Source of the DNA: Candidatus Cloacimonadota bacterium
GTDB taxonomy: Bacteria; Muiribacteriota; UBA6191
Length of the DNA: 64,000 nucleotides
Direction: 5' to 3'
Assembly: GCA_019454875.1 (NCBI GenBank)
Contig: JACFNL010000008.1
Coordinates: 1,567 to 65,566, forward strand
Positions 22,494 through 61,427 of the stretch are shown here, in pieces (position 1 is the stretch's first letter; the number at the start of each line of letters is the position of its first letter). The position numbers were made by a program, and so were the translations under genes. Below the pieces are notes generated by a model that was not told the origin of the DNA, made no database searches, and saw only the letters and a program-made list of their open reading frames with translations.

Positions 22494-22522
22494 TCTACTC
22501 CTCGTTCAAAAAACATGCCATT

Positions 22523-25510: not shown

Positions 25511-26477
25511 GTTCTAATACCTGCCTTAAGATGGCATAAGCCCCCTGGCCAGCCTCATATTGTGAAAATCGCCTCTGGAATTCTACACGCATTGCATCAT
25601 GATTTTGCATAAAAATATGCTCTTTTAAACACATTTTGTAAAAGTTGTCCTGAATTCCAAGATTCACAGCCAGACCTTTGTCGCTTAGCTCTTTGATTAC
25701 TTGGGCCTGTTCTTCATGCTGGGCTATCAGAAGTGGCACAGAACCACATTTAAGAACTTCATAAGCCGTAATACCCCCACTAGCAATCACAAAATCCGAG
25801 CCACGAAAATAAGGTCTGAGATCGGTTACTCCTGCCCGAAAATCAAACATTGGATATAAAGACTTCAAAGCAGTCTGTCTATCCAGGGAAAAACCAGGTC
25901 CCAAAAATATAAGAAACCGATTTACATCAACGGGGAGTGAAACCAGATATGGCAAAAGAATTTCAGTCAGACCAAAAGGATCTGAGCCTCCAAACGACAC
26001 GGGAACTTTTCCTGGTTCCAGTACAAGAGGTTTTTCTTCCTCATCATCAAACACAAACCACTTGATTCCGATCCATTCCTGACATTTTCCAATCCTTTGT
26101 TCCCGAGCACTGACCCCAAGAAGGGTACTGACAAAATGCAAATCAAACTCTTTGCGCATTTCCCCTAGTTCATCCAGGCCAACAACCAGGCAAAAGGGAT
26201 CCAATGCATTAAGATACTGCCGGTTAAATCCATGATCGTCCACAATCAGAATCCGGTTGTTCTGGCCCAGATGCTTAAGATCAGAACTTGTCGGAATATA
26301 TCGATATTCAAATTTTGAATGGGTCAGTTCTGGGTTTCTGAACAAAAATGTTACTTTACCACCTAAAGACTCAAGCTTTTTGGCCAAAATCTCACAGCGG
26401 CGCAGATGCCCATATCCAACGGATTCCGAAAAGTCTGTGACAAAAAACCACTCAAAATCAGAAAACTCAGGCTTCAA
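25485..26477 (-). CDS. pseG: PseG-like UDP-sugar hydrolase (GT28 C-terminal-domain family)
   Basis: FVTDFSESVGYGHLRRCEILAKKL N-terminal motif typical of PseG; 330 aa. Confidence 0.6.
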   Translation of the reverse strand: MKPEFSDFEWFFVTDFSESVGYGHLRRCEILAKKLESLGGKVTFLFRNPELTHSKFEYRYIPTSSDLKHLGQNNRILIVDDHGFNRQYLNALDPFCLVVGLDELGEMRKEFDLHFVSTLLGVSAREQRIGKCQEWIGIKWFVFDDEEEKPLVLEPGKVPVSFGGSDPFGLTEILLPYLVSLPVDVNRFLIFLGPGFSLDRQTALKSLYPMFDFRAGVTDLRPYFRGSDFVIASGGITAYEVLKCGSVPLLIAQHEEQAQVIKELSDKGLAVNLGIQDNFYKMCLKEHIFMQNHDAMRVEFQRRFSQYEAGQGAYAILRQVLEHAKHRSVS

Positions 26478-27210
26478 ACAGCCCCTTCTGCTTAACAGAC
26501 TGATTCATCTCAAACAACTGAGGATTTTTAATATAAAGTTCTCTTAACGAGGGTAGTGTAATAGAAGCCGGCTCTAAATTAAGAGCTTCAGAAACCTGGT
26601 TCACCAGCTTAAGATCCAAATCAGAGTCCACGGTCAGTCTGAGATGGGCAATATCCTGATAACCAGCATCCAAGGGTACACGAATTGCTGTACTACCTTC
26701 TTCATAAAGGCCAGGGGTGACATGCTCAACCCAGTGGGCAGGCAGAGTCGGGCGGGAAAACATGCGTAAAAATGTGCTGCGACGAAATACCTCAAATCCA
26801 CAACCTAAAGGCAGTCCCGTGGGGCAGAGGTAATCACCACCCTCATCCTCTAGCCTTTTGATTGCATCCGACAAAAAACACTTCTGGGTCATTGGATTAT
26901 CCGCTGTGATGCGAATCAACCACTGAGCATCAGATACAAGAGCTGCATGATGAAATCTTGAAATGACCTGGGACTCTGAGCCCCGAAAAAGATTAAACCC
27001 CAAACGGTTTACCTCGGAAGCTACAGGATCATCCGATCGGCCCAGAACACCTAAAACCAGAGTCTGATCCGCGTTCAGACCAAAAAGAACCTGTGCCAGA
27101 AGAGTACTGCTACCAGCTCTCATCAATACCTTGCCGGGTAACCGGGAAGCCAGATAACGAGCCTGTACCAGAACCAGAACATCATTTCTTGAACTAAAAT
27201 CTGTTTCCAT
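26467..27210 (-). CDS. cytidylyltransferase, SpsF/PseF (CMP-nonulosonate synthetase) family
   Basis: VLVQARYLASRLPGKVL matches the R-x-G-S-x-R-L-P-x-K motif of acylneuraminate-type cytidylyltransferases. Confidence 0.6.
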   Translation of the reverse strand: METDFSSRNDVLVLVQARYLASRLPGKVLMRAGSSTLLAQVLFGLNADQTLVLGVLGRSDDPVASEVNRLGFNLFRGSESQVISRFHHAALVSDAQWLIRITADNPMTQKCFLSDAIKRLEDEGGDYLCPTGLPLGCGFEVFRRSTFLRMFSRPTLPAHWVEHVTPGLYEEGSTAIRVPLDAGYQDIAHLRLTVDSDLDLKLVNQVSEALNLEPASITLPSLRELYIKNPQLFEMNQSVKQKGLFEA

Positions 27211-42969: not shown

Positions 42970-44778
42970 GATTTTTAAAAGCTCGTCTCTGGAAATTTTT
43001 CCATGTTGATCCAGATCTTTTCTATGGATTCCATTTTTATCGTAAAAGGCAAAAAATGGCATGGAAGCACTTTGATAAACCTGGTTCTTGACTCTGGAAG
43101 CCTCTGAATCAGCTTCTGTGCAATCCAGAATACCCACAGCAAATCGTGCCAGTTCTGCCTGAATTTTGGGATCTGGCAAAATATTTTCCTTGATTTGCCG
43201 GCAGGGAATACACCACTTTGCCGTGAAATAAAGCATAACTGGAGCACCACGGTTTTTACCTGCCTTTAAAGCATCTTTTTGGCTATCAAAAATTTCCTGT
43301 ACCTTAGCAGGGGCTGAAATTTCAGCATTGCTTGACGCATTAACGAGCCTATGGGGAAATCTCAGTTCGATCATGCCAGATACTCCATAAAGAATCATCA
43401 AAAGACCAAAAGCCTGGCGAATACGAAACACAAAAGGATCGGCGGGGGTTAAACGAAACAGACCACCAATGAGTACCCCACCTGTAAAAAACCATAAGGA
43501 GTATCCAAACTGAATCTGAGCCTCGCTTAAAAATACTGTTTGAAAATGAAAGGCAACCAGCAACAAAACAAAGCCCATGCCCTGCTTTAAAGAAACCATC
43601 CAGCCACCAGACCTTGGCAGAATATTCTGGGAAAATAAAGCCAGAACCAGAAACAGAACTCCCATTCCAAGACCAAATGATGCCATCATCAAAAATCCAA
43701 ACAAAAGGCTTTCCGGGTGTTTCACAAGATAAAGAATTATGGCTCCGGCAAAAGGCCCTACACATGGTGCAGCCACAAAACCCATGGCACAACCCATAAA
43801 AAACAGTGTACCTGGACTAGTACCCTCCACAGAGTTTAGTTTCTGTTTTAAAGACTGGGGTAGATCAATCTCAAACAGGCCAAACATACTTAAGGCAAAA
43901 AGAAGCATTAATGAACTAAGAAATACGGCCACAACCGGATTAGCCAGCCAGGAGCCAAGATCTTTGCCTGTCTTGGCAGCCACAACCCCTAACAGGGCGT
44001 ACACCAGAACAATTCCTAGAACATAAATCAGAGCACGAAAGAACCTTATGCCTTTACTGCTCCCTGTCTCCCCGGAAAACAGGGAGACGGTAATGGGAAT
44101 CATAGGATAAACACAGGGAGTCAGTGAGGCTAAAAGGCCCCACAAAAATGCCTGAATCAAAGCAATCCACCAGTCCTTGGCTATGGGACTATGTTCCTGG
44201 TTTACAGATTCCGGCTCGCTAAAAAATGCCGTAAATTCCTGGGAAACTTCCCTGGTTTTTGTACTTCCTGTTGTATGGGTAATCACAATTTCTTCGGTTT
44301 TGAGAATTCCACAGGAGGTTAATGTACAGGGTTGCCATTGAGCCTCAAGAACCAGTCGGCCTTCTCCGGTAACTGATTTTGCACTCATGCCCATCATGGC
44401 ACCATCTTCTAAAAAGTAGGAGGTGTAGTTATTGCCCTCTCCTAAAGATATTTTATGGGTAACAGAGGGGCTTTGCCTTAAAGAAAGTAGTTCCCAGTCT
44501 GAGGAATTAACAATTTTAAGACTAGTTGGTGTGCCTATGGTTTCTTTATCCCCATAGATATGCCATCCAGATTCCATCTTGAACTTGACAAGTACCCAAA
44601 TCTCGGTGCCAGTGCTTATACCTTCATGCGATGAGGACACATCATAAGTCACAGGACCTGATGAAACAGCCTGGGGCTTTTTAAAGGATGAAAGTTTTAA
44701 CCCGAGTTTAGGGGACGCTTCACAAAACAAATTGCCCAAACAGATAAGCATTAACAAAAGTAGGCGCGTCAAAATCAT
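42955..44778 (-). CDS. dsbD: thiol:disulfide interchange protein DsbD (DsbD-beta TM core + C-terminal thioredoxin)
   Basis: Polytopic central region with conserved Cys pairs; C-terminal FTAKWCIPCRQ thioredoxin CxxC motif; 607 aa. Confidence 0.8.
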   Translation of the reverse strand: MILTRLLLLMLICLGNLFCEASPKLGLKLSSFKKPQAVSSGPVTYDVSSSHEGISTGTEIWVLVKFKMESGWHIYGDKETIGTPTSLKIVNSSDWELLSLRQSPSVTHKISLGEGNNYTSYFLEDGAMMGMSAKSVTGEGRLVLEAQWQPCTLTSCGILKTEEIVITHTTGSTKTREVSQEFTAFFSEPESVNQEHSPIAKDWWIALIQAFLWGLLASLTPCVYPMIPITVSLFSGETGSSKGIRFFRALIYVLGIVLVYALLGVVAAKTGKDLGSWLANPVVAVFLSSLMLLFALSMFGLFEIDLPQSLKQKLNSVEGTSPGTLFFMGCAMGFVAAPCVGPFAGAIILYLVKHPESLLFGFLMMASFGLGMGVLFLVLALFSQNILPRSGGWMVSLKQGMGFVLLLVAFHFQTVFLSEAQIQFGYSLWFFTGGVLIGGLFRLTPADPFVFRIRQAFGLLMILYGVSGMIELRFPHRLVNASSNAEISAPAKVQEIFDSQKDALKAGKNRGAPVMLYFTAKWCIPCRQIKENILPDPKIQAELARFAVGILDCTEADSEASRVKNQVYQSASMPFFAFYDKNGIHRKDLDQHGKISRDELLKILQSL

Positions 44779-47700
44779 ATTTCCTCAATTTTTACGGCAA
44801 TATAGGTAATATCATCACTTGGGTCTACCCCGTCACGATATTCAAACATATCCTGTTCCAGGATTGTCTTGAGTTCACCGGGACTACAGTTCTTATAATT
44901 TTCAAGCAAAAGGCGTTCCAGTCTTTCCATCCCATATAATTCCAGTGCGGGATTTTCCAGTTCAGTAACTCCATCTGTGTATAAAAACAGCCAGTCCCCG
45001 GGACTAAGAGTTATTTCTTTGGTCTCATAAAATCCGGGAGAAAACATGCCAAGGGGCAATCCTTTGGCATTTAAGTATTCAATTTTCTGCTCCTGACTGC
45101 GGATTACAAACATCTTGTTATGTCCGGCAGATGCATAGCTGAAGGTTCTAGTTTTAAGATTTAAAATCCCAAAAAACAATGTGGCAAACAGAGTATTGGA
45201 TTTACCCTCACATAAAAGATCGTTTAAGCGAACCATAAGTTCCCCAGGAGACTCAATCCTAGAGGAAAGACTCTGTAAAAAGGCCTTGCAGGTAGCACCA
45301 AACAGGGAAGCACCTACCCCTTTCCCGGACACATCCGATATAACAAATCCTATTTCATCAGGATTTGTATACTCCACAAAATCAAAAAAATCTCCACCCA
45401 GAAACTTGGCTGCCCCAAAAGCAAAATCCATACTCAGTCCAGGAAGAACCAAGGGTTCCTGAGGCAAAATTCCAAGCTGAATATCCCGTCCTTCCACACT
45501 ATCTTTTTTGAGTTTATCCAGCCACACCTTGGCCACTACACTTACAGTCTGGGAGGTAAAACTTAAAAGAAATTTTTCCTGCTCCTGGCTGAATTGAGGC
45601 ACGGCCGGACTACCTAAAATTAAAAATCCTTCCACATTATCCTGATGGATGCCGTGAAACAGAATTCCGTTCTCAAATAAAAGCTGGGCCTGGGCATTTT
45701 TTAAAGCCAGAGGTTTTAACCTGCTTACCAAATCCTCTTTGGATTCCACCCATTGACCACCAGTTTTAAGGGAAGAACCAATAAATTTTTCTTTTGATGT
45801 CTGCTCATAAAAACCTAACCAGACAAAACCGGCACCAAAAATCTGTATCAGGCGATCCGATGCATAATCAAGAAGCTCGGATAAATCTTTACCATCAAGC
45901 ATCATTTCGTTGATTTGATTTACTGAGCCAAGTTCCATGACTCTGGTATCAATATTTTGAACCATGGCATCAAAGTCTCTGGCCATCTGGGCAATTTCGT
46001 TGTTATCCCTTAAATGTAAAGGTTTAATGGATTCATGGGCTGCATAGGCACTCACGGAAACTGTAAGTTCATTAACAGGATGTACAATCCTTAAAGAAAG
46101 CCTGCGAATCAAAAATGCCGTTATGCCAATGGTCAGAAGGATCACGATTAGAATAAGAATCTCAACGGTGCGGATTTCTGAATAAGCCAGATCCCTGGGC
46201 AGAGATAAAAACAAAAGGTGGTCAGAAAAATCTGGGGATCGCACAGCAAGGCCTAACATCACCTGCCCAGAAGAAACAAACTCATAATCCACCGATCCAA
46301 AGCGTTTCTCTTTTAACATCTGTCTTAATTCCAAAACCGTGGCATCGGGTAACTGATTCGCACCGTTTCCATGAATAGTCCTGATTTTTTCTTCCGGAAA
46401 CCTGGAGTCATCAAGAATTGCCTCGGGTACAGGCACAACCATCAATTCAGTATGTAGCTGCCATAATAGGGAACGGTCCTTCAAGGTCGGTGAATCCTCT
46501 CTAAGGCCAATCAGGTATGCTCCAAGACTCAGATAGTCCCTGATGACATCCATAAATGAGCGAGACTGGTTCAGAGCCTGTCTTGCTTCCTTCTTATCCC
46601 TTAGATCCCATAAAGACTGATAGGCCTGAAGTATCACAGGATCCGCATTGCGTAAGTCTAAAAATTCATTGTGAAAGTGGTTTGCCCCTTCACTGGCAAC
46701 TAGCTCCATGGCCTTGAAATAGTGCAGTTTTAATTCACTGAGCCTAAGAATTGCAAAAAACAAACCGGCAGGCATTGGAGAAATTCCTGCAAAAAACTCC
46801 TCCGGCTCAAAATTATGGGGTGAATACCAGTAATGAAACAAAAATGCCCCTGTGTTTGTATTCCATAACATCCATCTTTTTACACGAAGGGTCAGTTCTA
46901 TACCCAGATATCCTATAAATTCCTCATCCCAATTTGATATTCCCAGATCCTGTAACAGATAATAATTGCGAATCTTGCCTACAGTTGAGTTTACTGAGGA
47001 CCACTCCAAATCATCCTTGAGGTTGGTGATTTCTTGGCCGGAAAGAAGATACCTTGGTCTGAGATTTTCAAAGGGCTCAAGACTTAGTCTACTGTCAGAA
47101 CTCTGCACAGCCCTCTTTACTCTCACCAGACTATAATAACTGATACGGTATGGGTCCGCTTCCTCAAGTACCTGCCTCCAGTGATGATCTCCAATTCCTG
47201 ACTGCTTTGGCTCTGTCAGAAGTTGTCTGACTGATTCTGGGCAGATCTCCCCATATAGCTCAAAACAGGCGTTTAATCCCTGCTTAAGCCAGGTCTTGGA
47301 AGATAAGGATTCCAGTTGATTTTCTCTCCACAAAAGCCTTAATTTCACCAAAGGCTCAAGCAGATTTTTTCGTAGGGTTTTAAGCTTCTCCCAGTTCGTT
47401 TCCGTGTGAGTGTACCAGGGCATAGGTCTCAGGGCTTTAGCACAGTCTGGATCAAAATCTGTCACACAGCGAATTTTTGCCCGTTCTTCCTCCAATAAAC
47501 CAGCTGGGCTGGTGCTGGTTTCCAAAGAGGGTTGTAATGAGGCTATTAACTCCTGGACGGTAAACAGTCTGTTTGGGGCAGTTGTTCGCAAAAGCTGAAG
47601 ACGGACTGGAAGGTTTGTTTCCTGGGATGAACTTTGTGGAACCGGGATCCCAAGCCTGGGAAAATACCTCTGATAATAAACACTCAAGGCCTGATTGGCA

Positions 47701-47963
47701 CTCACATAATCCTTAGCTGGAACAAAGGTATCGGTAGCCCGGATTGCCGTATCCTGGTAAGCCTTTAACATCTGGTTTCGAAAATGGGACTCCAGGGACT
47801 GAACCTGGGATCTTTGATTTTCAGAAACTACCATCTCCACCAGTAAAGCCCGTGATTTCAGACTACTGAAGGCAAATCCAGCCAAAAACAGCATAGGAAG
47901 AAATAAAGCCAGAGTAAATCCAACCAGAAAAAGATTGCCCAACTTTTTGTTAAACCGAGGCAA
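44775..47963 (-). CDS. membrane sensor phosphatase: TM, ~520-aa extracytoplasmic domain, TM, HAMP, GAF-like, PP2C (SpoIIE/RsbU family)
   Basis: N-terminal TM LFLVGFTLALFLPMLFLAGFAF, second TM ILILIVILLTIGITAFLI + HAMP, C-terminal PP2C with FVISDVSGKG and LYTDGVTELEN. Confidence 0.8.
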   Translation of the reverse strand: MPRFNKKLGNLFLVGFTLALFLPMLFLAGFAFSSLKSRALLVEMVVSENQRSQVQSLESHFRNQMLKAYQDTAIRATDTFVPAKDYVSANQALSVYYQRYFPRLGIPVPQSSSQETNLPVRLQLLRTTAPNRLFTVQELIASLQPSLETSTSPAGLLEEERAKIRCVTDFDPDCAKALRPMPWYTHTETNWEKLKTLRKNLLEPLVKLRLLWRENQLESLSSKTWLKQGLNACFELYGEICPESVRQLLTEPKQSGIGDHHWRQVLEEADPYRISYYSLVRVKRAVQSSDSRLSLEPFENLRPRYLLSGQEITNLKDDLEWSSVNSTVGKIRNYYLLQDLGISNWDEEFIGYLGIELTLRVKRWMLWNTNTGAFLFHYWYSPHNFEPEEFFAGISPMPAGLFFAILRLSELKLHYFKAMELVASEGANHFHNEFLDLRNADPVILQAYQSLWDLRDKKEARQALNQSRSFMDVIRDYLSLGAYLIGLREDSPTLKDRSLLWQLHTELMVVPVPEAILDDSRFPEEKIRTIHGNGANQLPDATVLELRQMLKEKRFGSVDYEFVSSGQVMLGLAVRSPDFSDHLLFLSLPRDLAYSEIRTVEILILIVILLTIGITAFLIRRLSLRIVHPVNELTVSVSAYAAHESIKPLHLRDNNEIAQMARDFDAMVQNIDTRVMELGSVNQINEMMLDGKDLSELLDYASDRLIQIFGAGFVWLGFYEQTSKEKFIGSSLKTGGQWVESKEDLVSRLKPLALKNAQAQLLFENGILFHGIHQDNVEGFLILGSPAVPQFSQEQEKFLLSFTSQTVSVVAKVWLDKLKKDSVEGRDIQLGILPQEPLVLPGLSMDFAFGAAKFLGGDFFDFVEYTNPDEIGFVISDVSGKGVGASLFGATCKAFLQSLSSRIESPGELMVRLNDLLCEGKSNTLFATLFFGILNLKTRTFSYASAGHNKMFVIRSQEQKIEYLNAKGLPLGMFSPGFYETKEITLSPGDWLFLYTDGVTELENPALELYGMERLERLLLENYKNCSPGELKTILEQDMFEYRDGVDPSDDITYIAVKIEEI

Positions 47964-50900
47964 GTTCCTGCTCCTGTTTCAAAACCTTCACAATGATAAA
48001 GGTGACATCATCAGACAATAAAATTCCATTGCGAAAATCCGCCAGTTCCTGCTCCAGTTCTTTGACAAACTCAGAAGCAGAAAGGGACTGATTCTTTTTG
48101 CAAAAGTCTATAAACCGTTCGTTACCGTATAGCTCCAGATCCTGATTTTCAAGCTCAGTGACCCCATCGGTGTAAAGAATCAGGCTGTCCCCCAAAAAAA
48201 GCTGAATATTTTTAGTTTCGTATTTACCCCCATCAAACAGGCCACAGGGCAGGCCTTTGGCACTTAATTCTTCAATACTTCCATCAGCGCGCATCAGATA
48301 CATTTTGTTGTGCCCGGCTGAGGCGTACTCCATATTTAAAGTCTTAAGATCAATCACACAATAAAACATGGTCAAAAACAGAGATGATGTCTTTTTGTAA
48401 CACAGTCCCTTATTCAATTCAGTCAGATGGGACCCTGCCTGGGTTGCATCGGAGGAGACTACTCTCATAATGGCCCTGGATGTAGCTCCAAACAAAGAAG
48501 GGCCAATACCTTTTCCCGACACATCTGCAATAGTAAAACCCAACTTATCTGGCCAGACTAAAAAATCATAATAGTCCCCGGCCAGTCCCCGGGCCGCAAC
48601 AAAGGAACTGCCTATGTCTAAAATTCCCCTGCTATCAGGAACCTGATTGGGCATCAAAGACTCCTGAATCTCCCAGCCCTTTTCCGCATCAGCTTTAATT
48701 TCCTCCAGAAGACTTTTGTGAAATACCGAACGGGCCTGTTCAAAAAGACTCTGAACCATCACAGGTTCAAACTCTGTATCGGGATCAAGAATCAGAAACA
48801 AACCGGTCATAACACCGTCCTGATCCTTAATTTTTTCCCGGGTAAACAATAAGGCTGCTTTTTGTGAATCAGGAAAATACTTCTGCCTTATATCCTGAGG
48901 TAAAACCACTGCCTGACGAATCTTTTCGGAATTTCTAAGGTTATCGGGCACATACAGATTAAGTATCTCCTGACGAAAACCAGCCAAAAAATCCATGCCC
49001 GAATCTATCCCGGCACCCACATAATCCTGAGGCATGGCCGAAAGTTCACCAGAAACAAAGCTGAGTAGTGAGGCCCGAGGACCGAGGCGATGATGAATCA
49101 CATCCACAAGATGTTTCATAATCTCGTTTCGCGAAACACCTGTATTCATCATATGATTCAACTCACGAATCAGATTCATCTGAAACAGCTTGTCCTCAAT
49201 ATTGGCAGCCATGCGATTAAAATGCCAGCCTAACTTCCCAAGCTCATTGTCGGAATCAAGTTCCACTTTTTTTTCATAATTACCCTGGGCCAGAGCACGG
49301 ATTCCTTCATTCAAATTCAGAATTGGCCGTATCACCTTTTTGGATATCAGGGTTCCCATACCAGCAACGGCCAAAAGTGCTGCTAGTACAAACAGAATTG
49401 TGCCAATGGCATCCCGTTTCAAAACCTCTTTTAGTGGCTCACTGGATTGCAGGGTAAGATATGCCTGATTAGGAAAATCCTCGGTAGGATGTAAAGTCCC
49501 CATCCATTCTTTCTGATCCGAGGGATGAACAAATGTAAACTGCAAGGAAGTCTTTAATACAGGCAATAAATGAGCCAGAAGCATACCATCACTACAAGCC
49601 TGCATTTTTTGAAAGATGATTTCTCTAGCCTGAGGATCCGATTCCCTAGCTAGCACCTCGGCAATGGCATAATCCCTGAATGCCTCCCGATTCAGGTAAT
49701 ACTGACCCGTTTTAGGATTCAAAACCCGCATCAGTTTTTGAATCCTAAAGTCCGAGGAATGAAAATTCAAAAAGTCTTTTGGAATTTCTTTTGAAGACAA
49801 ATCCCCATCAATCAAAACTCCATCTGGAGTAAATGCGGACTGTACCGACCCTTCACGGCCTTCCTGAAGTGAGTTCAGGCTGAGGGCGTAAAACCACATT
49901 TTTTTCTCTTCTAACAGATGACGAATCAGACCAAGGCTCAAAAACCCCTTTTTTTGCAGGTGATCTTTAATACTCTTGGTATCAATGGACTGATTCAGAA
50001 ATTCTGTGTCCATTCCGGCAATGGACTGCATTCCCTCAGGAAACTCCCCCGATTTAAATGCTTTCCAGAAGGTTTCTCTTACATCCGTCATATCCAGCAC
50101 GGCCAGACAGATTGCATCCATAGCCTCGACTTCGGAATTTCTATAAGCCTGATAATCGAAGTCCTCAGGCAAGGATCTCCAGTAAAGCTCCATTTCCTTA
50201 GAAAAAAATCTGACCAGAAGCCAACGCTTACGGGATTCAAGAATAGGAATTTTTACAAGATTTTCAAAGGCAGCCTGCTCAGTAAGTGCCATATCCAATC
50301 CAAAAACCATACCGCGCATAATATCGCGAACAATTCCGGTAAACTCGTCCCAAATCAGGGCCATCATGGAGGAACGGGGATTAATGGCCATATGCACGGG
50401 CAAATAATCAAAGGTGCGCATAAGTCCGGCCCGGCGCAACCACTCATTCCTCTCCTGCTCGTTTTCCAGATCCACTCCTTCGCGGGAAGGTGTATCCAAA
50501 AACAGATCCTCATAAAACAGAGCCTTTTTATCCTTGTTTCTGCTAAAGGACTTTTCCAGAACATAAATCTGAACCTTGATTGGAGATTTAAAATCATCGT
50601 GCTGGCTTGGATCTGTGGATATTGCTCTGGCAATCATACGATTGTAGAGGGTACGGTAGGAGGCATAAGCCCCCATATAACGGGTCTTCTGAGGTGGATT
50701 TTCCTTTTCCAGATATTCTAAAAAGCGTTTGGAGCGATTGAACCATAAATTGGGATCCGTGGCTCCAGGAACCTTGGAATTCATGCGGTCAAAATAATTC
50801 TCGGCCAGGGATCTGAGATAACCTTTGTAGTGAAAATAGGATGCATGCCATCCAGACAGAATCAGCAAATGCTGATCAAGTTCCTCCCTGGTTCTTAAAT

Positions 50901-51036
50901 CCAGGGACTGCTGATAGTTATCCCAGGCCAAACGACAAAGTACCAGAACAGGAAGACCCACGGCGGCCAGGAAAAAAATCTGAAATGTCCTGGCTAAGCT
51001 TTTTTTGGGCCCTGGATTCACTTCAGCATTGTTCAT
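47950..51036 (-). CDS. paralogous membrane sensor phosphatase (TM, extracytoplasmic domain, TM, HAMP, GAF-like, PP2C)
   Basis: Same layout as 44775..47963: TIADVSGKGIG, LYTDGVTELENQDLELYGNERF; HAMP after TM GTILFVLAALLAVAGMGTLI. Confidence 0.8.
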   Translation of the reverse strand: MNNAEVNPGPKKSLARTFQIFFLAAVGLPVLVLCRLAWDNYQQSLDLRTREELDQHLLILSGWHASYFHYKGYLRSLAENYFDRMNSKVPGATDPNLWFNRSKRFLEYLEKENPPQKTRYMGAYASYRTLYNRMIARAISTDPSQHDDFKSPIKVQIYVLEKSFSRNKDKKALFYEDLFLDTPSREGVDLENEQERNEWLRRAGLMRTFDYLPVHMAINPRSSMMALIWDEFTGIVRDIMRGMVFGLDMALTEQAAFENLVKIPILESRKRWLLVRFFSKEMELYWRSLPEDFDYQAYRNSEVEAMDAICLAVLDMTDVRETFWKAFKSGEFPEGMQSIAGMDTEFLNQSIDTKSIKDHLQKKGFLSLGLIRHLLEEKKMWFYALSLNSLQEGREGSVQSAFTPDGVLIDGDLSSKEIPKDFLNFHSSDFRIQKLMRVLNPKTGQYYLNREAFRDYAIAEVLARESDPQAREIIFQKMQACSDGMLLAHLLPVLKTSLQFTFVHPSDQKEWMGTLHPTEDFPNQAYLTLQSSEPLKEVLKRDAIGTILFVLAALLAVAGMGTLISKKVIRPILNLNEGIRALAQGNYEKKVELDSDNELGKLGWHFNRMAANIEDKLFQMNLIRELNHMMNTGVSRNEIMKHLVDVIHHRLGPRASLLSFVSGELSAMPQDYVGAGIDSGMDFLAGFRQEILNLYVPDNLRNSEKIRQAVVLPQDIRQKYFPDSQKAALLFTREKIKDQDGVMTGLFLILDPDTEFEPVMVQSLFEQARSVFHKSLLEEIKADAEKGWEIQESLMPNQVPDSRGILDIGSSFVAARGLAGDYYDFLVWPDKLGFTIADVSGKGIGPSLFGATSRAIMRVVSSDATQAGSHLTELNKGLCYKKTSSLFLTMFYCVIDLKTLNMEYASAGHNKMYLMRADGSIEELSAKGLPCGLFDGGKYETKNIQLFLGDSLILYTDGVTELENQDLELYGNERFIDFCKKNQSLSASEFVKELEQELADFRNGILLSDDVTFIIVKVLKQEQELASV

Positions 51037-54076: not shown

Positions 54077-54628
54077 TTAAGGTTGAAACAGATTTTGTGA
54101 ACCTGAAGCATTTAACATCTGAAATAGACCTTCCATCTGTTTTATCTGCGATTCCATACCGGAAGCATTATTGGATGATGGAGCAAGCATCCGTAGACCT
54201 TCCAGAAGCTGTTTCTGAAAATCCGTGCTTTTCATTTGTTGCATCAGCTGCTGTACCTGGGGATTCTGATTTAATTCCATAAGTTTTGAAGAGTCAATGT
54301 TTTGTCCCTGAAGATTCAACAGACTTCCCACTGAATCAGAACCCATCATCTGCTGTAGACCCTGCATAAAATTTGCCGTACTGATGGCATTGGGACCGCT
54401 GGAAGGTGCTGAGAATATACCCTTGGGTGCCGGTCTGCCGTGAGTTGGGATATTACTGGTTCCTCTTCTGGCAGGAGCTTCCATATAAGCCTTCTTCGGC
54501 AACTGTTTTCCACAGGAATAACAAAAATTATAAGACTCCTCGTTTTGTGTACCACAATGTGGGCAGTACATGGAAAAAAGCTGAGTGGAAAACAAAAAAT
54601 TCAGACAAACAACAAGGATCATTTTCAT
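54077..54628 (-). CDS. membrane/secreted zinc-ribbon protein with Gln/Met-rich low-complexity tail
   Basis: Hydrophobic N-terminus, then CPHCG...(11 aa)...CYSCG double CxxC, then Q/M-rich region (QQLMQQMK...). Confidence 0.4.
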   Translation of the reverse strand: MKMILVVCLNFLFSTQLFSMYCPHCGTQNEESYNFCYSCGKQLPKKAYMEAPARRGTSNIPTHGRPAPKGIFSAPSSGPNAISTANFMQGLQQMMGSDSVGSLLNLQGQNIDSSKLMELNQNPQVQQLMQQMKSTDFQKQLLEGLRMLAPSSNNASGMESQIKQMEGLFQMLNASGSQNLFQP

Positions 54629-55662
54629 CAGGAAACCGCCAGTTCAGCCTGAAGCCTTATCTGGGCTGCTTCCAGATCGGCCTGATACAATTCCTCAGAC
54701 CGAACGGACTGTAACAGCCAGCGAATACTGTTTAACTCTTCCAGATTGGCCACCTGAAGCACCATCTGATGAATCAGATGAAGGGCCCGTTTATCATCCT
54801 GTGAATATAAAAGGCGGGCGGCTCCGGTACGAACCCGTGGATCCCTGTCTCTTAAGGCTGCCTGAGCCATACCTAAAATCATATTGCGGTAGCCATCACT
54901 GGCCGCCCATCTCCAAAGACCTTCCAGGGTATTGGAGCGCACTCTGGCATCCTCGTGTTCCATCAAACCATGAACCAGCATAGGCACTCTGGTGTTCTCA
55001 CCGAGTCTTTCATGAAAAACCAGAGGCAACAAACGGGCTAGTCTCGAAAGCACAAAACGATCCTGTTCCACAGCCAGGGCCTGTAATCCCCACTGAACCA
55101 AAGACTCTGCCCTGTCCTTCTGGCTCTCTACCCCGGATAACCATCGAAGTTTTGACTTGGAAGACATCTCCATAAAGGTACTGTACTCCAAGGCACCAAG
55201 AAGCCCTGAGGCTTCCCCGTCCATGTCGCGCTTCTGATCCAGTACATCCAGCCGTTTGCGGCATGCCGAACGAATCCTGGAATCACGGGAATCTATCTGG
55301 CTTTCCAGCCACTCATAAATTGTACTATGTTCCGGCAAAACCCAGTCCAGGCAAAGATCAAGAAGCATCAGCTTCTGATCGGGATTTCTGTCCCCAATCA
55401 ACTCCCAGGCCAAAGAAGATTCATCAAAAAAATCAGCTACAGTGACGGAACCATTGTGAAGAATTTCACCAAGAAGGCCATAACAATGACGGGACCAGGT
55501 TTCATATTCCGATTCCAGCATTTCTGTGAACAAAAACCGGGCAAAACGGACTGGATCAGGACCGGGGCCTTTTTGAGAAGATACAAAGTCTTCAAGGAAA
55601 CGGATTTTTTCCGGCACTTCCTCAAGGCTGCTTACCTTATATTTATCAAAATCACTTCTCAT
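54628..55662 (-). CDS. HEAT (PBS-lyase-type) repeat protein (344 aa)
   Basis: Repeated EDARVRSNTLEGL / DRDPRVRTGAARLL units. Confidence 0.5.
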   Translation of the reverse strand: MRSDFDKYKVSSLEEVPEKIRFLEDFVSSQKGPGPDPVRFARFLFTEMLESEYETWSRHCYGLLGEILHNGSVTVADFFDESSLAWELIGDRNPDQKLMLLDLCLDWVLPEHSTIYEWLESQIDSRDSRIRSACRKRLDVLDQKRDMDGEASGLLGALEYSTFMEMSSKSKLRWLSGVESQKDRAESLVQWGLQALAVEQDRFVLSRLARLLPLVFHERLGENTRVPMLVHGLMEHEDARVRSNTLEGLWRWAASDGYRNMILGMAQAALRDRDPRVRTGAARLLYSQDDKRALHLIHQMVLQVANLEELNSIRWLLQSVRSEELYQADLEAAQIRLQAELAVS

Positions 55663-55692: not shown

Positions 55693-56328
55693 CTAGAATT
55701 GCATTTGTTGCAGGGGCTTTTCAAAATGATGATAGTCCTGAATCTGCTTCCAGTTACCACCCCAAACCCACCCTTGATCCAAAAATGCTTCGACCACTGG
55801 ATGTTTAAGCGACAGAGTACCTAATCTTTCAGGGATGTATTTTCCCTCAGAGGGTTCCATGCCATGGGCGGTAAAACAGGGATTCCATAAAGGGTTAATA
55901 TCAACAGCCATACCAAGGGCATGCCAGGACAGGCGATTTGTACCCGCTATGAAGCGATAGTTAAACCCACTGCTGTTATTCATACGCATAGAAATTGCAT
56001 CAGAGGGTCTTCCTCCACTAAAAAATGCAGGATCAGACACAGGTCTTATCATGGCAACAGGAAAATGGTTTTGCAGCATAAATTCAAACAGACCCAAAAG
56101 TTCCTGGGCCAGATCCTTATGTATCACAATCTGCCCGGTGCGCTTCTCTCCTTGAGAATCCAGATGATCTACATCAAGTAACACCAGGGTTTGCAAAATC
56201 TCTGGGGGACAGAGAGGGTCTGTCCCAAACAAAACGGCAGACTCCCATTCCATCAAGGGTTTTTCTAAGAGGGAATCACCAGTAGTTTTCGTAGTGAATG
56301 TTGCCATGTTTTTTAGGTTCATCGACAA
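55693..56328 (-). CDS. peptidase M15 (VanY / D-Ala-D-Ala carboxypeptidase-like)
   Basis: SWHALGMAVDINP matches the M15 S-x-H-x-x-G-x-A-x-D zinc-binding motif. Confidence 0.6.
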   Translation of the reverse strand: MSMNLKNMATFTTKTTGDSLLEKPLMEWESAVLFGTDPLCPPEILQTLVLLDVDHLDSQGEKRTGQIVIHKDLAQELLGLFEFMLQNHFPVAMIRPVSDPAFFSGGRPSDAISMRMNNSSGFNYRFIAGTNRLSWHALGMAVDINPLWNPCFTAHGMEPSEGKYIPERLGTLSLKHPVVEAFLDQGWVWGGNWKQIQDYHHFEKPLQQMQF

Positions 56329-57169
56329 TAAACCCCATCTTCACAAGCATCTCCACAACTCCGCCCTGGGTGGGATATTCCCACAACCCCAATTCTCGAT
56401 TCTTTTTTGGGGCTCCAACCATAGACGGGTTACCACACAAAAATACATGGGTTGTTTCTGGCTTCAAGTCAAATCCAGCCATGTCCATAAGCAGATTCTG
56501 TGATATTAAATCCTGAATATAAAGCTTTTTTTGATTCGGCTCACGAGTCGATAGTGCCAGGGTTTTATAACCTTTATAAAGCGATTCAAGTTCCTTGTGT
56601 GTTTCAAAATAACAGTGATCCTCCTGCCTGCGACTACAGGTAACATGTAAAATTTTTCCCTGGTAGCCGTTAGCAAGCAGAAAACGGATCATAGAGTTAT
56701 GCGGGGCCTCTCCTGTACCTGTTGAGGCAAAAAGAATCTGATCTGGTAACACTCCATTTAGTAAATCCAGAGTGTAGTGTCCCATGGCCTTTTCTGAGAT
56801 AAATATCCTCTCTCCACCCTTTAGATAAAAAAGCCTTGGAGTTAATGCCGGAGCTGGATTTTCTGAAGTCGGCTCAACTAATGCCACATAAAACTCCAGA
56901 TGTTTAGGCAATGACTCTACAAGTTTTGATTCAATCAGAATTGGATCAGAGAGGGAATATGGTCTTTTACACAGTCTTGATTCCTGATTTTCCTTAAGAG
57001 TCTCTGTGCCGGAGCCCATTATTCGTGGCTCCCAGTACCCAAGACCTAAGGTAAAATACTGGCCAGGTTTGTAAGGAGGGATCTCCTTATCAGGTTTCAC
57101 CCTAAGTATCAGCAGATTTTTTTGTGGATACCTTGCAGATAAGACAGTTGCATTGTACAAATCACTCAT
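56276..57169 (-). CDS. fpr: ferredoxin--NADP+ reductase (Fpr-type)
   Basis: RPYSLSD (RxYS FAD motif), STGTGEAP (NADP motif), FLCGNPSMV, C-terminal aromatic ...YENYW. Confidence 0.7.
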   Translation of the reverse strand: MSDLYNATVLSARYPQKNLLILRVKPDKEIPPYKPGQYFTLGLGYWEPRIMGSGTETLKENQESRLCKRPYSLSDPILIESKLVESLPKHLEFYVALVEPTSENPAPALTPRLFYLKGGERIFISEKAMGHYTLDLLNGVLPDQILFASTGTGEAPHNSMIRFLLANGYQGKILHVTCSRRQEDHCYFETHKELESLYKGYKTLALSTREPNQKKLYIQDLISQNLLMDMAGFDLKPETTHVFLCGNPSMVGAPKKNRELGLWEYPTQGGVVEMLVKMGFIVDEPKKHGNIHYENYW

Positions 57170-57178
57170 CTTATTTCC

Positions 57179-57769
57179 TCAGGTCTGTGGTACATCAATC
57201 CTTAAAAGCATATTGGTGTAGCGGGGATATACGGTAACTAAAGCTACCATTGGACGGATTTCCTGTTTGCCCTCAACAGTTTTAGTCTGAACCGTATCAA
57301 AATATTCTATGGTTATGTCAATTCGGTGTTTCTGGGTAAGAATTTGCTGATCTACCTGATTTGAACCCGTATAAAAACCCAAAATCTGGGTCTGACCCCC
57401 AAGAAAAATTCCCTGTCTGATAATGCTGTCCCCATCCCGTTCCACAAATGCGATGGCCTTTTTTTCCCGAACATAACTATATTCCACAGAATAGTTCTGA
57501 TGGCCAAACTGCTCGCCCATCAGGATGCGGATGGCCTCGGTCTGGGTATTGCTCTCAGGAATCACGACCCCAATGGCTGACTTGAGCTCCTGGCGAATTT
57601 TTGTACTTAGAAGTCTTACTGCCTGCTGCCCTTGAGACTTCTGAATCACCTTGATCAGCCGGTTCTGATAGGTACCATACATCAGATAAAAAACACTTAA
57701 AATAAACATGGCGATGGCAAAGGCAATCAGCATTTCAATCAGGGTAAATGCACCTCGTTTTTTTAACAT
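57179..57769 (-). CDS. prepilin-type (pseudopilin) protein, 196 aa
   Basis: MLKKRGAFTLIEMLIAFAIAMFIL: N-terminal methylation/cleavage motif with an extra Ala before FTLIE. Confidence 0.65.
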   Translation of the reverse strand: MLKKRGAFTLIEMLIAFAIAMFILSVFYLMYGTYQNRLIKVIQKSQGQQAVRLLSTKIRQELKSAIGVVIPESNTQTEAIRILMGEQFGHQNYSVEYSYVREKKAIAFVERDGDSIIRQGIFLGGQTQILGFYTGSNQVDQQILTQKHRIDITIEYFDTVQTKTVEGKQEIRPMVALVTVYPRYTNMLLRIDVPQT

Positions 57770-58231
57770 TTAATCTGCCCTGCTATCCGTAATCATGGAA
57801 CTGACCGTGATGGATTCTTCCCCGCCCATGACATTTTTCCACATTACCTGAATTGCCACTAGCCTGAGTTTAGAAGGTGCTGCTGGATTGCGATCATTCT
57901 CAGGGCGAATTTCACTGATGGCAATACCAATTAAAAACTTGTCCTCGTACTGGTTAAAAAAAGGCAAATTTCTTCTCAAATTACTTGCTACCATCTGTCT
58001 GATTTCCGGGACACTGTAGTACTGATCTGGTGGCCGAGGCGGAATTACGGCAAACTCCACACCACGAATTGCTTCAATGAGATCGGCCGCTGCCAGAATG
58101 GCTGTAGTGCGCTCAGCACCCTTGTAAACTCCTTTGGTGCCAGAATCCATAAGGCGAAGAATCGGGGTCACCAACAGGGTGGCTATGGTAATCGTGGCCA
58201 GAATTTCAATTAAGGTGAACCCTTTTCTCAC
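57770..58231 (-). CDS. GspG-like major pseudopilin, 153 aa
   Basis: MRKGFTLIEILATITIATLLV classic prepilin motif (G|FTLIE, Glu+5). Confidence 0.7.
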   Translation of the reverse strand: MRKGFTLIEILATITIATLLVTPILRLMDSGTKGVYKGAERTTAILAAADLIEAIRGVEFAVIPPRPPDQYYSVPEIRQMVASNLRRNLPFFNQYEDKFLIGIAISEIRPENDRNPAAPSKLRLVAIQVMWKNVMGGEESITVSSMITDSRAD

Positions 58232-60945
58232 TGCAATCCTGCTTTCCAGCTGAACTTGGCAATTTCATCCGTCAGGGATGCCCAGTAATAGGAATTTTTA
58301 CTGGCCTCATCCAGATTATCCAAAAAATAAGAGGGATCGTACTTCACAAGGCCACCACAAGGCAAATCTTCCAGTTTGATTTCCGATGCGCCCAATGTCC
58401 CAATCAGCTGAAATCTATATCCCTTATTGCGATTTTCCTCAGCATAGGATTTTGGAGGAAACATAAAACTGTACACAGTGGCCTGAATGGGCTGTTCGGT
58501 CACAAAACGAATTCCCCCTAAAGCCACAATGGTTAAAACGGAATCGTCCTTACCTTGAGCCGCTCCCATACCGGTATCAAAGGCATATCCATCTTTTTTC
58601 AATCCAACATCAAAAATCACTTCCCCAAAAGTCACAATCATTGCCTTTCCCTTGTAGGTGAGCATGCGTTCCCCTGGGGCCACAAAATCAGAAAACTTCA
58701 AGGGCATGGCCGTACCGGTAATATAAAGAACCCCATTCATTTCCAGTCTGTTTGTATCCGGGTTAAGATACTTTTCCTTTAGAAGATTTGTGGGTTTTCC
58801 CTCACTGTCACGGCGGGTATAGTCATAAATTGAGGAAATATAATCTGTGGCTTTACGATAGTATAAAAAGGGATTAAAGTTAGCCAGTTCAAACTCAGGC
58901 TCAAGATGTTTGGTAAACAGGGATTTATACTGCCCCCCCCAGGCGTTTTCCAGTTGCTGATCCGAAGCATTATCAAAAAATATACCGTGTCTTGAAAACT
59001 TGGTAACTCCCTTATTTACATCCACAAACAGTTCTCTGAGTTTGGAGTCACTGTAAAATTCCTTCAGGTAGTTGCCTATAGCATTGTTATAGGGAGCAAG
59101 AATTGCTCCTGCTGGCACCTTGTCCTGAAAGTTCTGTTCAAAAAACTGTTGCTGGTATTTACGGTTATCACGCATATATTCAAAAAATGCCGGAGTTCTT
59201 AATCCAGAGGGCAAATCCAGAAAATTCTCAAAGGTTTCTTCAGACCAGCCCACCTCTGCATTGACAAACCGCGATTTCGAGCTTTGATCAAAGGGGGTTT
59301 TTTTGTTAGCATCAGTAATCCCCTCAAGTACACTGTCGGGAAACTCAGGAATGGGGTACTGCCCTGGGCCTAAGAGCCCAATTCTGAAGGTACTGATAAG
59401 AGAGCTAAAAGTACTTGCAATGTCATCCCAGGCACGGCTCCACCAGGATTGGCCTTCATTTTCCCTCTCTTTTCTTCTTTCCCATACGGATTGAAACTCT
59501 TCCGATCTGGTGTACTGATAATCCATTACCTTATAGTAGGACATTAAAGCCTTGCCATAAACAATGGTTGGAGAAACTCTTACATTGTAATTTTGATCCA
59601 CAAAGGCATTTAATACATCACGGGTTATTTCTGTAACTCCATCCCAGAGTCTTTGAAAAATCCCCCCCTCTTCATCGCGGTCCACACGAATGGCTTCAGG
59701 CTTTAATTCCACACGACCAAAAAGATCAAGCCCGGATTTGGAAGGGTTTTTGCTATTATCGTCTGTCTGCCACTCCCCGGCACTTTTATACGATTCAAAG
59801 TAAGACAGATAACCTGCCCTGTCCTTCCCGGAAATTTTTACCTTGTTATGCCTTAATTCTGCCCCGTGCCCAAGATAACGGGTAAATAGTTTTCCGTTAT
59901 GCGGCTCCAATACCTCAAGAAGTAATCGGTCTGCATCACTGAGTGAGGCTCCTCCAGCTCCAGCACTCAGATTGCCTCGTAAATCTTCCAGTGTAAAGTT
60001 CATGGCTGGTGGCAATAACTCGGTTTCGGCACTATAAAATGCCCTCTGAAGCATTCCTGATTCCATGTTGCCATTGGTCAGAGGCACAATTCCTGTATTT
60101 ACAAACACCCTGCCTGGTGGAACCTTGCCAGCCATCAAAACATCTTCAAATCCAGTTTTTAAATCCTCAAGACTCATTTCGGTTTTTCCCAGAGCTTCGG
60201 CCCATCCGTGATCAAGGATCAGGGAATGCTGGGTGGGAGACTCATCTGTGCAGCGCCCATCGGAACGGACATCTTCATTTTCACGGCCCTGGGCATATTT
60301 GACCCCCATTTTTGAAGACCAGTGAGCCAGATAAGGCCAGGAAGGATCGTTTAAAAACATGGTAAAAGGTGCCAAGGGGGCCATGGTCGTGTTGACAACC
60401 TTTAGGGAACGGGTGACCCGGATCTGTTTTACCATATCCTCAAAGGCCACACTGACATCAATCTCCAAAACCGCATCCTTTTCCTTAAGATCCGGTTTAA
60501 TTCTTCTGCCTGGGCGGTTATTTTCGCCACCACTGGGATTGATATCTATCTGTTTTATATCCTTGACAGCTGCCTTGATTGCAACGGCTGCCTTGATACT
60601 CTCAGCAAGTTTTATAGAATCTGGAACAAGGTAATCAGATACTCCCTTTTCAATTGGAATCTCTGATCCTTCCCTGGTTTCTTCCCTCAGTTTTTCATAA
60701 ATTCCACCAATTGGACCCTGATCATCAGAATTCATAAGCCTTTGGGCATTGACATAAAACTCTTCAACCACTGCCTCAGCAAGGTTCATACAAACCTCGT
60801 TTCTATAGGCAAACTGGGCAGCCCTGGCTTCATCACGGCTCATATCCATCAGAATATAGGCAAGAGCTATAAGAACACTTAAAATGATGGTGACGAGATA
60901 TAAAATACTACCTTTTTGAGACCTCATAACTCGCTTTCTCCCCAA
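58228..60945 (-). CDS. giant GspK-like minor-pseudopilin-type protein (905 aa)
   Basis: N-terminus RSQKGSILYLVTIILSVLIALAYIL resembles GspK-type prepilin signals lacking Glu+5. Large extracytoplasmic domain; start overlaps the lipoprotein gene and stop overlaps the GspG-like start. Confidence 0.5.
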   Translation of the reverse strand: MGRKRVMRSQKGSILYLVTIILSVLIALAYILMDMSRDEARAAQFAYRNEVCMNLAEAVVEEFYVNAQRLMNSDDQGPIGGIYEKLREETREGSEIPIEKGVSDYLVPDSIKLAESIKAAVAIKAAVKDIKQIDINPSGGENNRPGRRIKPDLKEKDAVLEIDVSVAFEDMVKQIRVTRSLKVVNTTMAPLAPFTMFLNDPSWPYLAHWSSKMGVKYAQGRENEDVRSDGRCTDESPTQHSLILDHGWAEALGKTEMSLEDLKTGFEDVLMAGKVPPGRVFVNTGIVPLTNGNMESGMLQRAFYSAETELLPPAMNFTLEDLRGNLSAGAGGASLSDADRLLLEVLEPHNGKLFTRYLGHGAELRHNKVKISGKDRAGYLSYFESYKSAGEWQTDDNSKNPSKSGLDLFGRVELKPEAIRVDRDEEGGIFQRLWDGVTEITRDVLNAFVDQNYNVRVSPTIVYGKALMSYYKVMDYQYTRSEEFQSVWERRKERENEGQSWWSRAWDDIASTFSSLISTFRIGLLGPGQYPIPEFPDSVLEGITDANKKTPFDQSSKSRFVNAEVGWSEETFENFLDLPSGLRTPAFFEYMRDNRKYQQQFFEQNFQDKVPAGAILAPYNNAIGNYLKEFYSDSKLRELFVDVNKGVTKFSRHGIFFDNASDQQLENAWGGQYKSLFTKHLEPEFELANFNPFLYYRKATDYISSIYDYTRRDSEGKPTNLLKEKYLNPDTNRLEMNGVLYITGTAMPLKFSDFVAPGERMLTYKGKAMIVTFGEVIFDVGLKKDGYAFDTGMGAAQGKDDSVLTIVALGGIRFVTEQPIQATVYSFMFPPKSYAEENRNKGYRFQLIGTLGASEIKLEDLPCGGLVKYDPSYFLDNLDEASKNSYYWASLTDEIAKFSWKAGLQ

Positions 60946-61427
60946 CGGCCTGACAGGTTTTTCACCTTTTCCTGTTCAGCCTGGTGTTCATGAAATGCCT
61001 TGCCACCACGGATGGCTTCCAAAAGTGATATAACCTCAGCATTTTTCTGGGTTGCCCGATCAATATCTCCCGATTTTTTATATTGCTCCACCAGAAAAAA
61101 ACCCAGTTCCAGTCTGGTTTTTGTATCCGAGCGGGGACTAGTCAGCCAAAGTTCCTCAGCTAAAGCAATAAGTTCCCTGGGAGATTCTCCACTTATGATG
61201 CGATTGCGAAACAATGAAATCCGTGCACTAAAGTCAGTGCCTGATAAACTGCCCCCAGAAGATTCCTTGTTACTCACTCCAGATTCCAAAGGCCCATCGG
61301 AACTTAAAGCGGCCTCCCATTCTTCCACGGACTGAATTTTTGGCGGTAAGGGCTGGTTTGTGGTTTTGGAAAAACAGCCAGCAAAAAGCCCGGCTAAAAT
61401 TAATATGCAGTATTTAGAGTGATTCAT
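60924..61427 (-). CDS. lipoprotein, hypothetical (167 aa)
   Basis: Lipobox ILILAGLFAGCFS; first gene of the pseudopilin array. Confidence 0.45.
   Translation of the reverse strand: MNHSKYCILILAGLFAGCFSKTTNQPLPPKIQSVEEWEAALSSDGPLESGVSNKESSGGSLSGTDFSARISLFRNRIISGESPRELIALAEELWLTSPRSDTKTRLELGFFLVEQYKKSGDIDRATQKNAEVISLLEAIRGGKAFHEHQAEQEKVKNLSGRWGESEL

Follow-up and report, generated by a model that had tools for sequence, protein, structure and literature searches.

The 64-kb window analyzed here (64,000 nucleotides of contig JACFNL010000008.1) contains, on its minus strand, a cassette of four coupled genes that encode a lipoprotein, a giant protein and two small prepilins, hereafter called pilin-A and pilin-B. 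We propose that the cassette probably specifies the "K-I-J" complex that primes or tips a filament of the type IV class, and that this filament is most likely a type IVa-like pilus. At the level of motif and predicted fold, the giant is a K subunit of the type represented by ComZ and by cyanobacterial PilX. Minor-pilin tip complexes with a solenoid-bearing apical pilin of the ComZ/PilX type are already known, and the device is essentially one of them, found in an unannotated protein family restricted to candidate phyla. Two features are unprecedented: a conserved, coupled lipoprotein, and a conserved region of ~500 amino acids (aa) in the middle of the giant. An earlier note on the same DNA had suggested a tip subcomplex of minor pilins with a giant GspK-like subunit as its cap, and that suggestion is supported by fold, motif and synteny.

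Organization of the cassette

The four open reading frames (ORFs) lie on the minus strand where the earlier note had placed them, and the coupling claimed there can be read directly in their overlapping or abutting junctions. The lipoprotein gene comes first (60924..61427, a 167-aa ORF), and its stop codon overlaps the ATG of the giant (ATGA). The giant gene follows (58228..60927, 899 aa from the ATG at 60927), and its TGA stop overlaps the GTG start of pilin-A (GTGA). Pilin-A (57770..58231) is a small minor-type prepilin of 153 aa; the ATG of pilin-B (57179..57769, 196 aa), a putative GspJ/PilW-type minor prepilin, stands directly after the TAA stop of pilin-A.

The giant had been described as a protein of 905 aa. 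This size holds for the longest ORF (58228-60945), which begins at an upstream TTG at 60945; however, the likely product is 899 aa long and starts with MRSQKGS, because the stop codon of the lipoprotein gene overlaps its ATG and NCBI calls the same start at 60927. Residue numbers given below for parts of the giant are those of the 905-aa ORF.

When the cassette genes were compared with those of a 94%-identical relative (L007), the nonsynonymous divergence (pN) was ~0.04 and the synonymous divergence (pS) was 0.68-0.82, synonymous sites being saturated. Strong purifying selection of this sort indicates that the four ORFs are real genes and not chance ORFs.

The next gene downstream is fpr (56276-57169). 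Its start codon lies 9 nt past the stop of pilin-B, and an AGGAAA sequence overlaps that stop, so that fpr is probably co-transcribed with the pilin cassette. Linkage between the cassette and fpr is limited to the closest relatives (L007 and L014). As candidate members of the cassette, fpr and the genes for an M15 peptidase, a HEAT protein and a zinc-ribbon protein were rejected: outside the closest relatives (L005, L007 and L014), neither fpr nor the genes beyond it stand behind the cassette, and they are therefore considered neighbors. HEAT_2 proteins are encoded near the cassette both in the window (54628-55662) and in a related locus (L019).

The giant protein

The N-terminal portion of the giant (60736..60927, minus strand) is made of a basic leader, a glycine (Gly12) and a hydrophobic segment of ~20 residues that forms part of the predicted α1 helix and lacks Glu+5. 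In the family alignment, conservation of Gly12 is at least 90%, and the ~20 uncharged residues that follow have Val or Leu, never Glu, at position +5. Among 137 long members of the family and of the wider superfamily described below, Glu+5 is absent throughout, and in 114 the hydrophobic segment is preceded by K/R plus G or A; most of the others start within that segment, and resemble gene calls truncated at the N-terminus. A 'SEV..NLAEA' motif located after the hydrophobic segment of the giant recurs in the N-termini of its relatives. Judged by these features, the signal appears to be class-III-like and of the PilX/GspK type (Gly-1, no Glu+5), as had been claimed. Lack of Glu5 is also found in PilX and GspK (PMC7541494).

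The conservation of this glycine has a bearing on a different explanation, namely that the giant does not polymerize but is an ordinary envelope protein, either secreted or signal-anchored (for example, a β-helix adhesin or an enzyme with its lipoprotein), and that the prepilins belong to an unrelated system. A near-invariant glycine before a 20-residue uncharged segment, kept superfamily-wide, would be needless for an ordinary anchor. Because the model of the giant also has the long helix and the sheet of a pilin, and because the order giant-prepilin-prepilin is kept with overlapping codons across clades that are ~30% identical, we consider this explanation very unlikely. A locus that harbors a remote superfamily member (L018) keeps the order too, except that an additional gene separates the giant from the first prepilin.

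In the AlphaFold2 (AF2) model of the giant alone, an N-terminal helix of ~60 residues (11-70), equivalent to pilin α1, is followed by a pilin-like β-sheet region (residues ~71-190; 60376..60735). Its three long strands (119-132, 156-168 and 171-185) have predicted local distance difference test (pLDDT) values of 83-91. The model also contains a confident β-rich C-terminal domain (residues ~700-880; 58306..58848), a β-solenoid of the ice-binding-protein (DUF3494-like) fold type, and ends with strands 887-892 and 899-904. These strands make a C-terminal hairpin (residues 887-904; 58234..58287) with the family consensus 'YY.VALTDEIKKYSWK'; Y886, Y887 and E894 are invariant in the family. The model matches the structures of ComZ, GspK, XcpX and PilX, which agrees with the pilin nature that the earlier note had ascribed to the protein. 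Hence, the predicted fold is that of a pilin, with a long N-terminal helix on an antiparallel sheet, and a large β-solenoid of the ice-binding-protein type appears to be attached to it, as in ComZ and cyanobacterial PilX.

The hairpin formed by residues 887-904 is a candidate donor strand that may complete the pilin sheet in cis. This role is suggested by the topology of ComZ (PMC6561018) and by the β-strand-addition model (PMC13533445).

The region between the sheet and the solenoid (residues ~191-699; 58849..60375) is poorly modelled and contains the most conserved motifs of the family. Invariant motifs include LDHGW, PPGRVF.N.GIVPLTNGN..G.LQ.AF.SAE.ELLP and NPSKSGLDLFGR. Consensus motifs resembling those of a β-helix were detected in a superfamily alignment (A6), and the region may be an irregular solenoid extension with large loops. 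Weak matches of the low-confidence model to 'pita-bread' folds (Arx1, prolidases, MetAP and Ebp1) are unassigned to any region. The ~500 conserved residues of the middle match no family and are one of the new features of the protein. The earlier remark that the non-pilin region was not recognized as any described family is valid for the middle, and does not apply to the C-terminal part, whose predicted solenoid is like those of ComZ and cyanobacterial PilX. In a Pfam search of 24 family members, no match to PilX_N or T2SSK was found at E ≤ 1; the giant belongs to an unannotated, previously undescribed protein family.

The two small prepilins

Pilin-A begins with the signal M-R-K-G|F-T-L-I-E, and pilin-B with K-R-G-A|F-T-L-I-E. 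Orthologues of pilin-B have either Gly or Ala at position -1, which sets the register of its signal at Ala-1/Phe+1. What had been viewed as an atypical signal is therefore a plain Ala-1 variant, and the identification of this gene as a second prepilin stands. Both proteins match PF07963 N_methyl and TIGR02532 above the curated cut-offs (N_methyl E 6.8e-5 in pilin-A), and N_methyl is matched by 12/12 orthologues of pilin-A and 12/12 orthologues of pilin-B. Alignments show that Glu+5 is invariant in the pilin-A family (12 orthologues) and in the pilin-B family. We take these features as indicative that pilin-A and pilin-B are prepilin-type proteins with class III signals.

Pilin-A had been considered a canonical GspG-like pseudopilin. 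It matches only the generic prepilin motif of the N-terminus (N_methyl, G|FTLIE); likeness to GspG was not found, as T2SSG was unmatched in pilin-A and in its 11 orthologues. Below the cut-off, weak matches to GspI, GspH and PilV were obtained, all confined to the N-terminus; the match to TIGR01707 gspI, for instance, scored 20.2 bits against a cut-off of 44.35 and covered residues 4-50 only. A match to the HpsC model was likewise limited to 27 N-terminal residues. The alignment of pilin-A displays an apparent helix-plus-three-strand pattern. By inference from this pattern, from the size of the protein, from the position of the gene and from the weak GspI/GspH/PilV matches, we propose that pilin-A may be an I/PilV-like subunit.

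In the case of pilin-B, the structural matches include GspJ, XcpW and EpsJ. Its predicted globular fold is of the J type, and we classify it as a putative GspJ/PilW-type minor prepilin. T2SSJ and PilW models did not match pilin-B, and 12/12 of its orthologues matched N_methyl only; NCBIfam matches (ComGF and others) were below cut-off. The name given to pilin-B by NCBI is 'type II secretion system protein'. Profile searches of pilin-A and pilin-B against PDB sequences matched only the N-terminal helices.

These assignments raise the possibility that the filament is a type II secretion pseudopilus instead of a pilus, an alternative that we view as fairly unlikely. The cassette would then encode a pseudopilus tip equivalent to GspI-J-K, with the giant acting as a piston head or substrate cap in the periplasm and the secretin vestibule. 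The minimal I-J-K composition of the cassette would suit such an apparatus, the best structural matches include GspK, XcpX, GspJ, XcpW and EpsJ, and NCBI's name for pilin-B points in the same direction. However, the K subunits known to bear a solenoid, ComZ and cyanobacterial PilX, come from pili (PMC6561018; bioRxiv 10.64898/2026.02.12.705559), and a head of ~700 aa fits poorly with a short periplasmic piston. A T2SSK domain is not detected in the giant by sequence, gspC-M genes are not found close by, and the cassette of the remote relative has PilT-size ATPases, a sign of retractile pili, in its vicinity.

The lipoprotein

In the product of the first gene of the cassette, the lipobox LFAG|C is part of a signal peptide; a low-complexity linker then leads to a C-terminal domain of ~90 aa, which is helical and conserved and has the motif 'AE.L...RLEL.F.L..AY'. 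The lipobox noticed previously is indeed present, and its Gly17 and Cys18 hardly vary among 12 orthologues, indicating that the product is a bacterial lipoprotein. Orthologues are found upstream of the giant in 12 loci, and a lipoprotein gene also stands ahead of the remote relative in L018.

Neither Pfam nor NCBIfam nor PDB provided a match for the lipoprotein (the PDB profile search recovered the signal peptide only). In 2/12 orthologues a weak match to TPR_8 was seen (E 0.033), in a protein whose conserved domain is just ~90 aa. The pilotins of the tetratricopeptide repeat (TPR) lipoprotein class (PilF/PilW/Tgl) have several TPR repeats and are needed for secretin assembly. A coupled helical lipoprotein as part of the cassette is a new feature, absent from current models of minor pilins.

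Distribution and conservation of the cassette

Relatives of the giant are rare: only 25 were found among 5.8 billion clustered proteins, all of them 836-963 aa long and all unnamed, and the giant is present in 11 of 185,579 GTDB species-representative genomes. The relatives form two tiers, one with 45-63% identity and another with ~30% identity. Members of the near tier are labelled Cloacimonadota or 'uncultured bacterium', and the far tier includes 'Candidatus Wallbacteria'. The closest relative, with 94% identity, belongs to 'bacterium UBP17_UBA6191'. Since a GTDB species representative bears this title, the phylum assignment of the metagenome-assembled genome from which the window derives, labelled 'Candidatus Cloacimonetes bacterium' by NCBI, is doubtful.

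In every locus with sufficient flank, the genes are arranged in the order lipoprotein, giant, prepilin of ~155 aa and prepilin of ~215 aa. The cassette is kept in at least 13 related loci, which belong to two deep clades ~30% identical to each other, and is also present around one remote superfamily member. In this remote locus (L018 9439-22847) the genes encode a lipoprotein, a K protein (948 aa), a TPR lipoprotein, a prepilin (178 aa) and a second prepilin (281 aa). Two T2SSE ATPases of PilT size are encoded 8-9 kb downstream of the L018 cassette, together with PolA and a 657-aa HEAT-repeat protein.

An exhaustive profile search delineated a wider superfamily of 157 cluster representatives at E < 1e-3. 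About 8 of the matches are full-length; the remaining members (600-950 aa) have a variable middle, and are alike in the first ~200 residues, the last ~170 residues, or both. Their N-termini share an 'RG + hydrophobic … LAE(A/S)' pattern. No curated Pfam, NCBIfam or PDB family was matched by the ~157 representatives, aside from three sub-threshold Pfam hits; PilX_N was matched by 2/63 remote members (best E 1.2e-4), and DUF7305 weakly by one.

Several related loci (L001 1-6361 and L006 1-6294, and also L009, L012 and L013) contain a second, divergent minor-pilin cluster of the K-I-J type, located 3.6-10 kb upstream of the cassette and in divergent orientation. It encodes a K-like protein (709-745 aa), two prepilins (196-199 aa and 274-275 aa), a membrane protein rich in Ser (322-342 aa) and another K-like protein of 940-979 aa. 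The 745-aa K protein shares the C-terminal domain of the giant (hhalign E 3.7e-5). A similar stand-alone cluster is found in L020 and L021.

In the Wallbacteria-like clade, TadZ/CpaE-like genes (Response_reg + AAA_31/CbiA) adjoin the cassette (L002 7113-8258; L003 7336-9839), and in L003 two such genes stand between the lipoprotein and the giant.

An affiliation with Tad/Flp-type (type IVc) systems, with the giant as an analogue of TadG/CpaL, was thus considered. The flanking genes of L002 and L003 speak for it, and so does CpaL itself, a large K-like pilin with a terminal strand in cis (PMC13533445). The affiliation was rejected on the type of pilin signal: pilin-A and pilin-B have N_methyl signals (G|FTLIE) typical of the type IVa and type II secretion class, not Flp or TadE/F signals. 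In addition, CpaF, TadB/C and RcpA genes are not found within 10 kb, and the giants matched no Pfam family, hence no Tad-associated domain. We therefore regard a Tad-type system as exceedingly improbable.

Search for the filament machinery

Twenty-eight proteins of the window, including every ORF of at least 300 aa not recognizable as housekeeping, were scanned with Pfam. Housekeeping and signalling genes were found, and no secretin, GspE/PilB, GspF/PilC or PilD was detected. Six-frame motif scans of the window detected neither a GspE-type Walker A motif nor a PilD motif. Hence, the earlier observation that GspD/E/F and PilB/C/Q are missing from the window was correct. An outward walk from the neighboring second cluster did not reach the machinery, nor was it located in the literature on Wallbacteria and UBP17.

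The cassette had been called an "orphan" module. This state is unremarkable, since minor-pilin clusters are commonly separate from the genes for the machinery (PMC7541494).

Proposed function

Our interpretation builds on the I-J-K licensing model, in which an I-J dimer recognizes the sheet of K once it has been completed by a terminal strand (PMC13533445). The strand is provided in trans by PilY1/PilC, and in cis by GspK, CpaL and ComZ-type proteins with large insertions (PMC13533445).

The sequence of events that we envisage is as follows. The four genes would be expressed together from one transcript, as suggested by their overlapping or abutting start and stop codons. Pilin-A, as an I/V-like subunit, and pilin-B, as a J-type subunit, would be anchored in the inner membrane by their N-terminal helices, and a prepilin peptidase encoded elsewhere would cut them after the Gly or Ala at -1, where the cleavage motif is found. 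The 899-aa giant would serve as the K subunit, having a signal of the PilX/GspK type, a predicted pilin helix and sheet, and a huge head that ends in a β-solenoid. Its C-terminal hairpin probably folds back and completes the pilin sheet in cis, and the I-J dimer may then recognize the completed sheet. Genes located elsewhere would provide a PilB/PilC-type machine, on which the resulting K-I-J trimer would seed polymerization of a major pilin; the trimer would then stay at the tip. We place the giant in an apical position because the ~700-aa head beyond the pilin domain appears too bulky for the body of a filament. Located at the tip, the head might act as a plug, an adhesin or a ligand receptor. 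The weakest step is the last one: the lipoprotein, anchored in a membrane that faces the periplasm, might chaperone or dock the giant.

Support for a tip complex comes from the coupling of the genes, from purifying selection, and from the persistence of the cassette across ~30%-identical clades and in a remote relative. The N_methyl matches and Glu+5 of both pilin families, the near-invariant Gly without Glu+5 in the giant, the detection of PilX_N in 2/63 remote members and the PilT-size ATPases of L018 point in the same direction.

Several observations, however, weigh against this interpretation. The giant gave no match in Pfam, NCBIfam or PDB-sequence profile searches, PilX_N, T2SSK and HpsA included. 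Its model is of moderate quality (pLDDT 68; predicted template modelling score, pTM, 0.57), and the middle is poor, with pLDDT values mostly of 31-60 that rise to ~80 in residues 530-620. When the model was compared with the PDB using Foldseek, no match was significant; the best was ComZ, with E 0.18. What the model shows of the putative fold-back of the C-terminal strand onto the N-terminal sheet is a conserved terminal hairpin. The I-type assignment of pilin-A is based solely on size, position and N-terminal similarity, and a fourth minor pilin of the H type is not present in the cassette. Lastly, genes for an ATPase, platform, secretin, peptidase or major pilin were not found in the window or in the 10-kb flanks of 17 related loci, so that our proposal assumes that this organism has a filament machine.

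A bolder version of the proposal, quite unlikely in our opinion, is that the ~500-aa middle of the giant makes up a new ligand-binding or catalytic module at the pilus tip, with the lipoprotein as a dedicated chaperone or docking factor. If so, the four-part cassette (lipoprotein-K-I-J) would represent, among type IV filament tips, a subclass that had not been recognized before and that occurs in candidate phyla (UBP17-like and Wallbacteria-like).

Comparison with known systems

ComZ of Thermus thermophilus combines a GspK-like pilin fold with an ice-binding-protein-like β-solenoid inserted before the last strand, and its location at the pilus tip has been argued (PMC6561018). No sequence likeness between the giant and the ComZ-PilA2 structure (PDB 6qvi; PMC6561018) was detected in the PDB profile search. 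ComZ is ~550 aa long, compared with 899 aa in the giant, which adds the conserved region of ~500 aa and the coupled lipoprotein. In cyanobacterial PilX, an ice-binding-protein-like solenoid lies between the penultimate and the last strands, and has been proposed to be a tip plug that replaces PilY1 (bioRxiv 10.64898/2026.02.12.705559). Resemblance to the PilX/HpsA systems extends to gene arrangement: cyanobacteria have several minor-pilin sets per genome, away from the machinery, and sister lineages of the organism studied here have a second K-I-J cluster. On the other hand, the giant matches no Hps model of NCBIfam and belongs to other phyla, and a lipoprotein partner is not described in the cyanobacterial systems.

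There are also differences from GspI-GspJ-GspK (PDB 3ci0) and XcpVWX (5vtm). GspK has ~330 aa with an α-helical insertion in mid-sheet, whereas the ~700-aa addition of the giant is β-rich and apparently C-terminal. Furthermore, the cassette lacks the context of a gsp operon as well as matches to the T2SSK, T2SSJ and T2SSI hidden Markov models.

Like the cassette, PilVWX-PilY1 and PilIJK-PilC have unlinked minor pilins, a K subunit that lacks Glu5, and a bulky protein (~1000 aa) at the tip (PMC7541494, PMC13533445), and licensing by a terminal β-strand offers a role for the conserved C-terminus of the giant. However, PilY1/PilC is a separate, Sec-exported β-propeller protein that provides its strand in trans, whereas bulk and pilin are a single polypeptide in the giant, which would act in cis; moreover, the cassette has neither PilY1 nor a fourth pilin of the FimU/GspH type. 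CpaL/TadG of Tad pili (~600 aa) is likewise large, pilin-like and apical, and has an insertion in its middle and a C-terminal strand in cis (PMC13533445), but it belongs to another class of pilins (Flp/TadE/F signals), and the partners of the giant are N_methyl prepilins.

Under the tip-complex interpretation, the fusion of a bulky solenoid head to the apical minor pilin in bacteria that lack PilY1, an idea derived from ComZ and cyanobacterial PilX, can be extended to deep-branching, uncultured phyla. K subunits of ~900 aa with an invariant C-terminal hairpin provide a natural test case for cis β-strand licensing (PMC13533445), and the 'hypothetical proteins' of the superfamily can now be labelled as putative apical tip pilins of the PilX/ComZ-like type.

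Other genes in the window

Elsewhere in the window, two overlapping minus-strand genes (44775-47963 and 47950-51036) encode tandem paralogues, membrane proteins of 1062 and 1028 aa that both combine a HAMP domain with a SpoIIE/PP2C phosphatase domain at the C-terminus. A group of minus-strand genes of the sugar-modification type (21498-27210) encodes a GFO/IDH/MocA oxidoreductase, a PylC-like ATP-grasp protein and a probable radical S-adenosylmethionine (radical-SAM) protein, and looks like a biosynthesis cluster for a surface glycan or a compound of the nonulosonic-acid type. Three consecutive minus-strand genes (9199-12696) are a possible module for specialized lipid or polyketide modification: one product (534 aa) has a FabD helical-insert domain and an NMO match below cut-off, another (425 aa) is radical-SAM-like, and the third (209 aa) is probably a methyltransferase.

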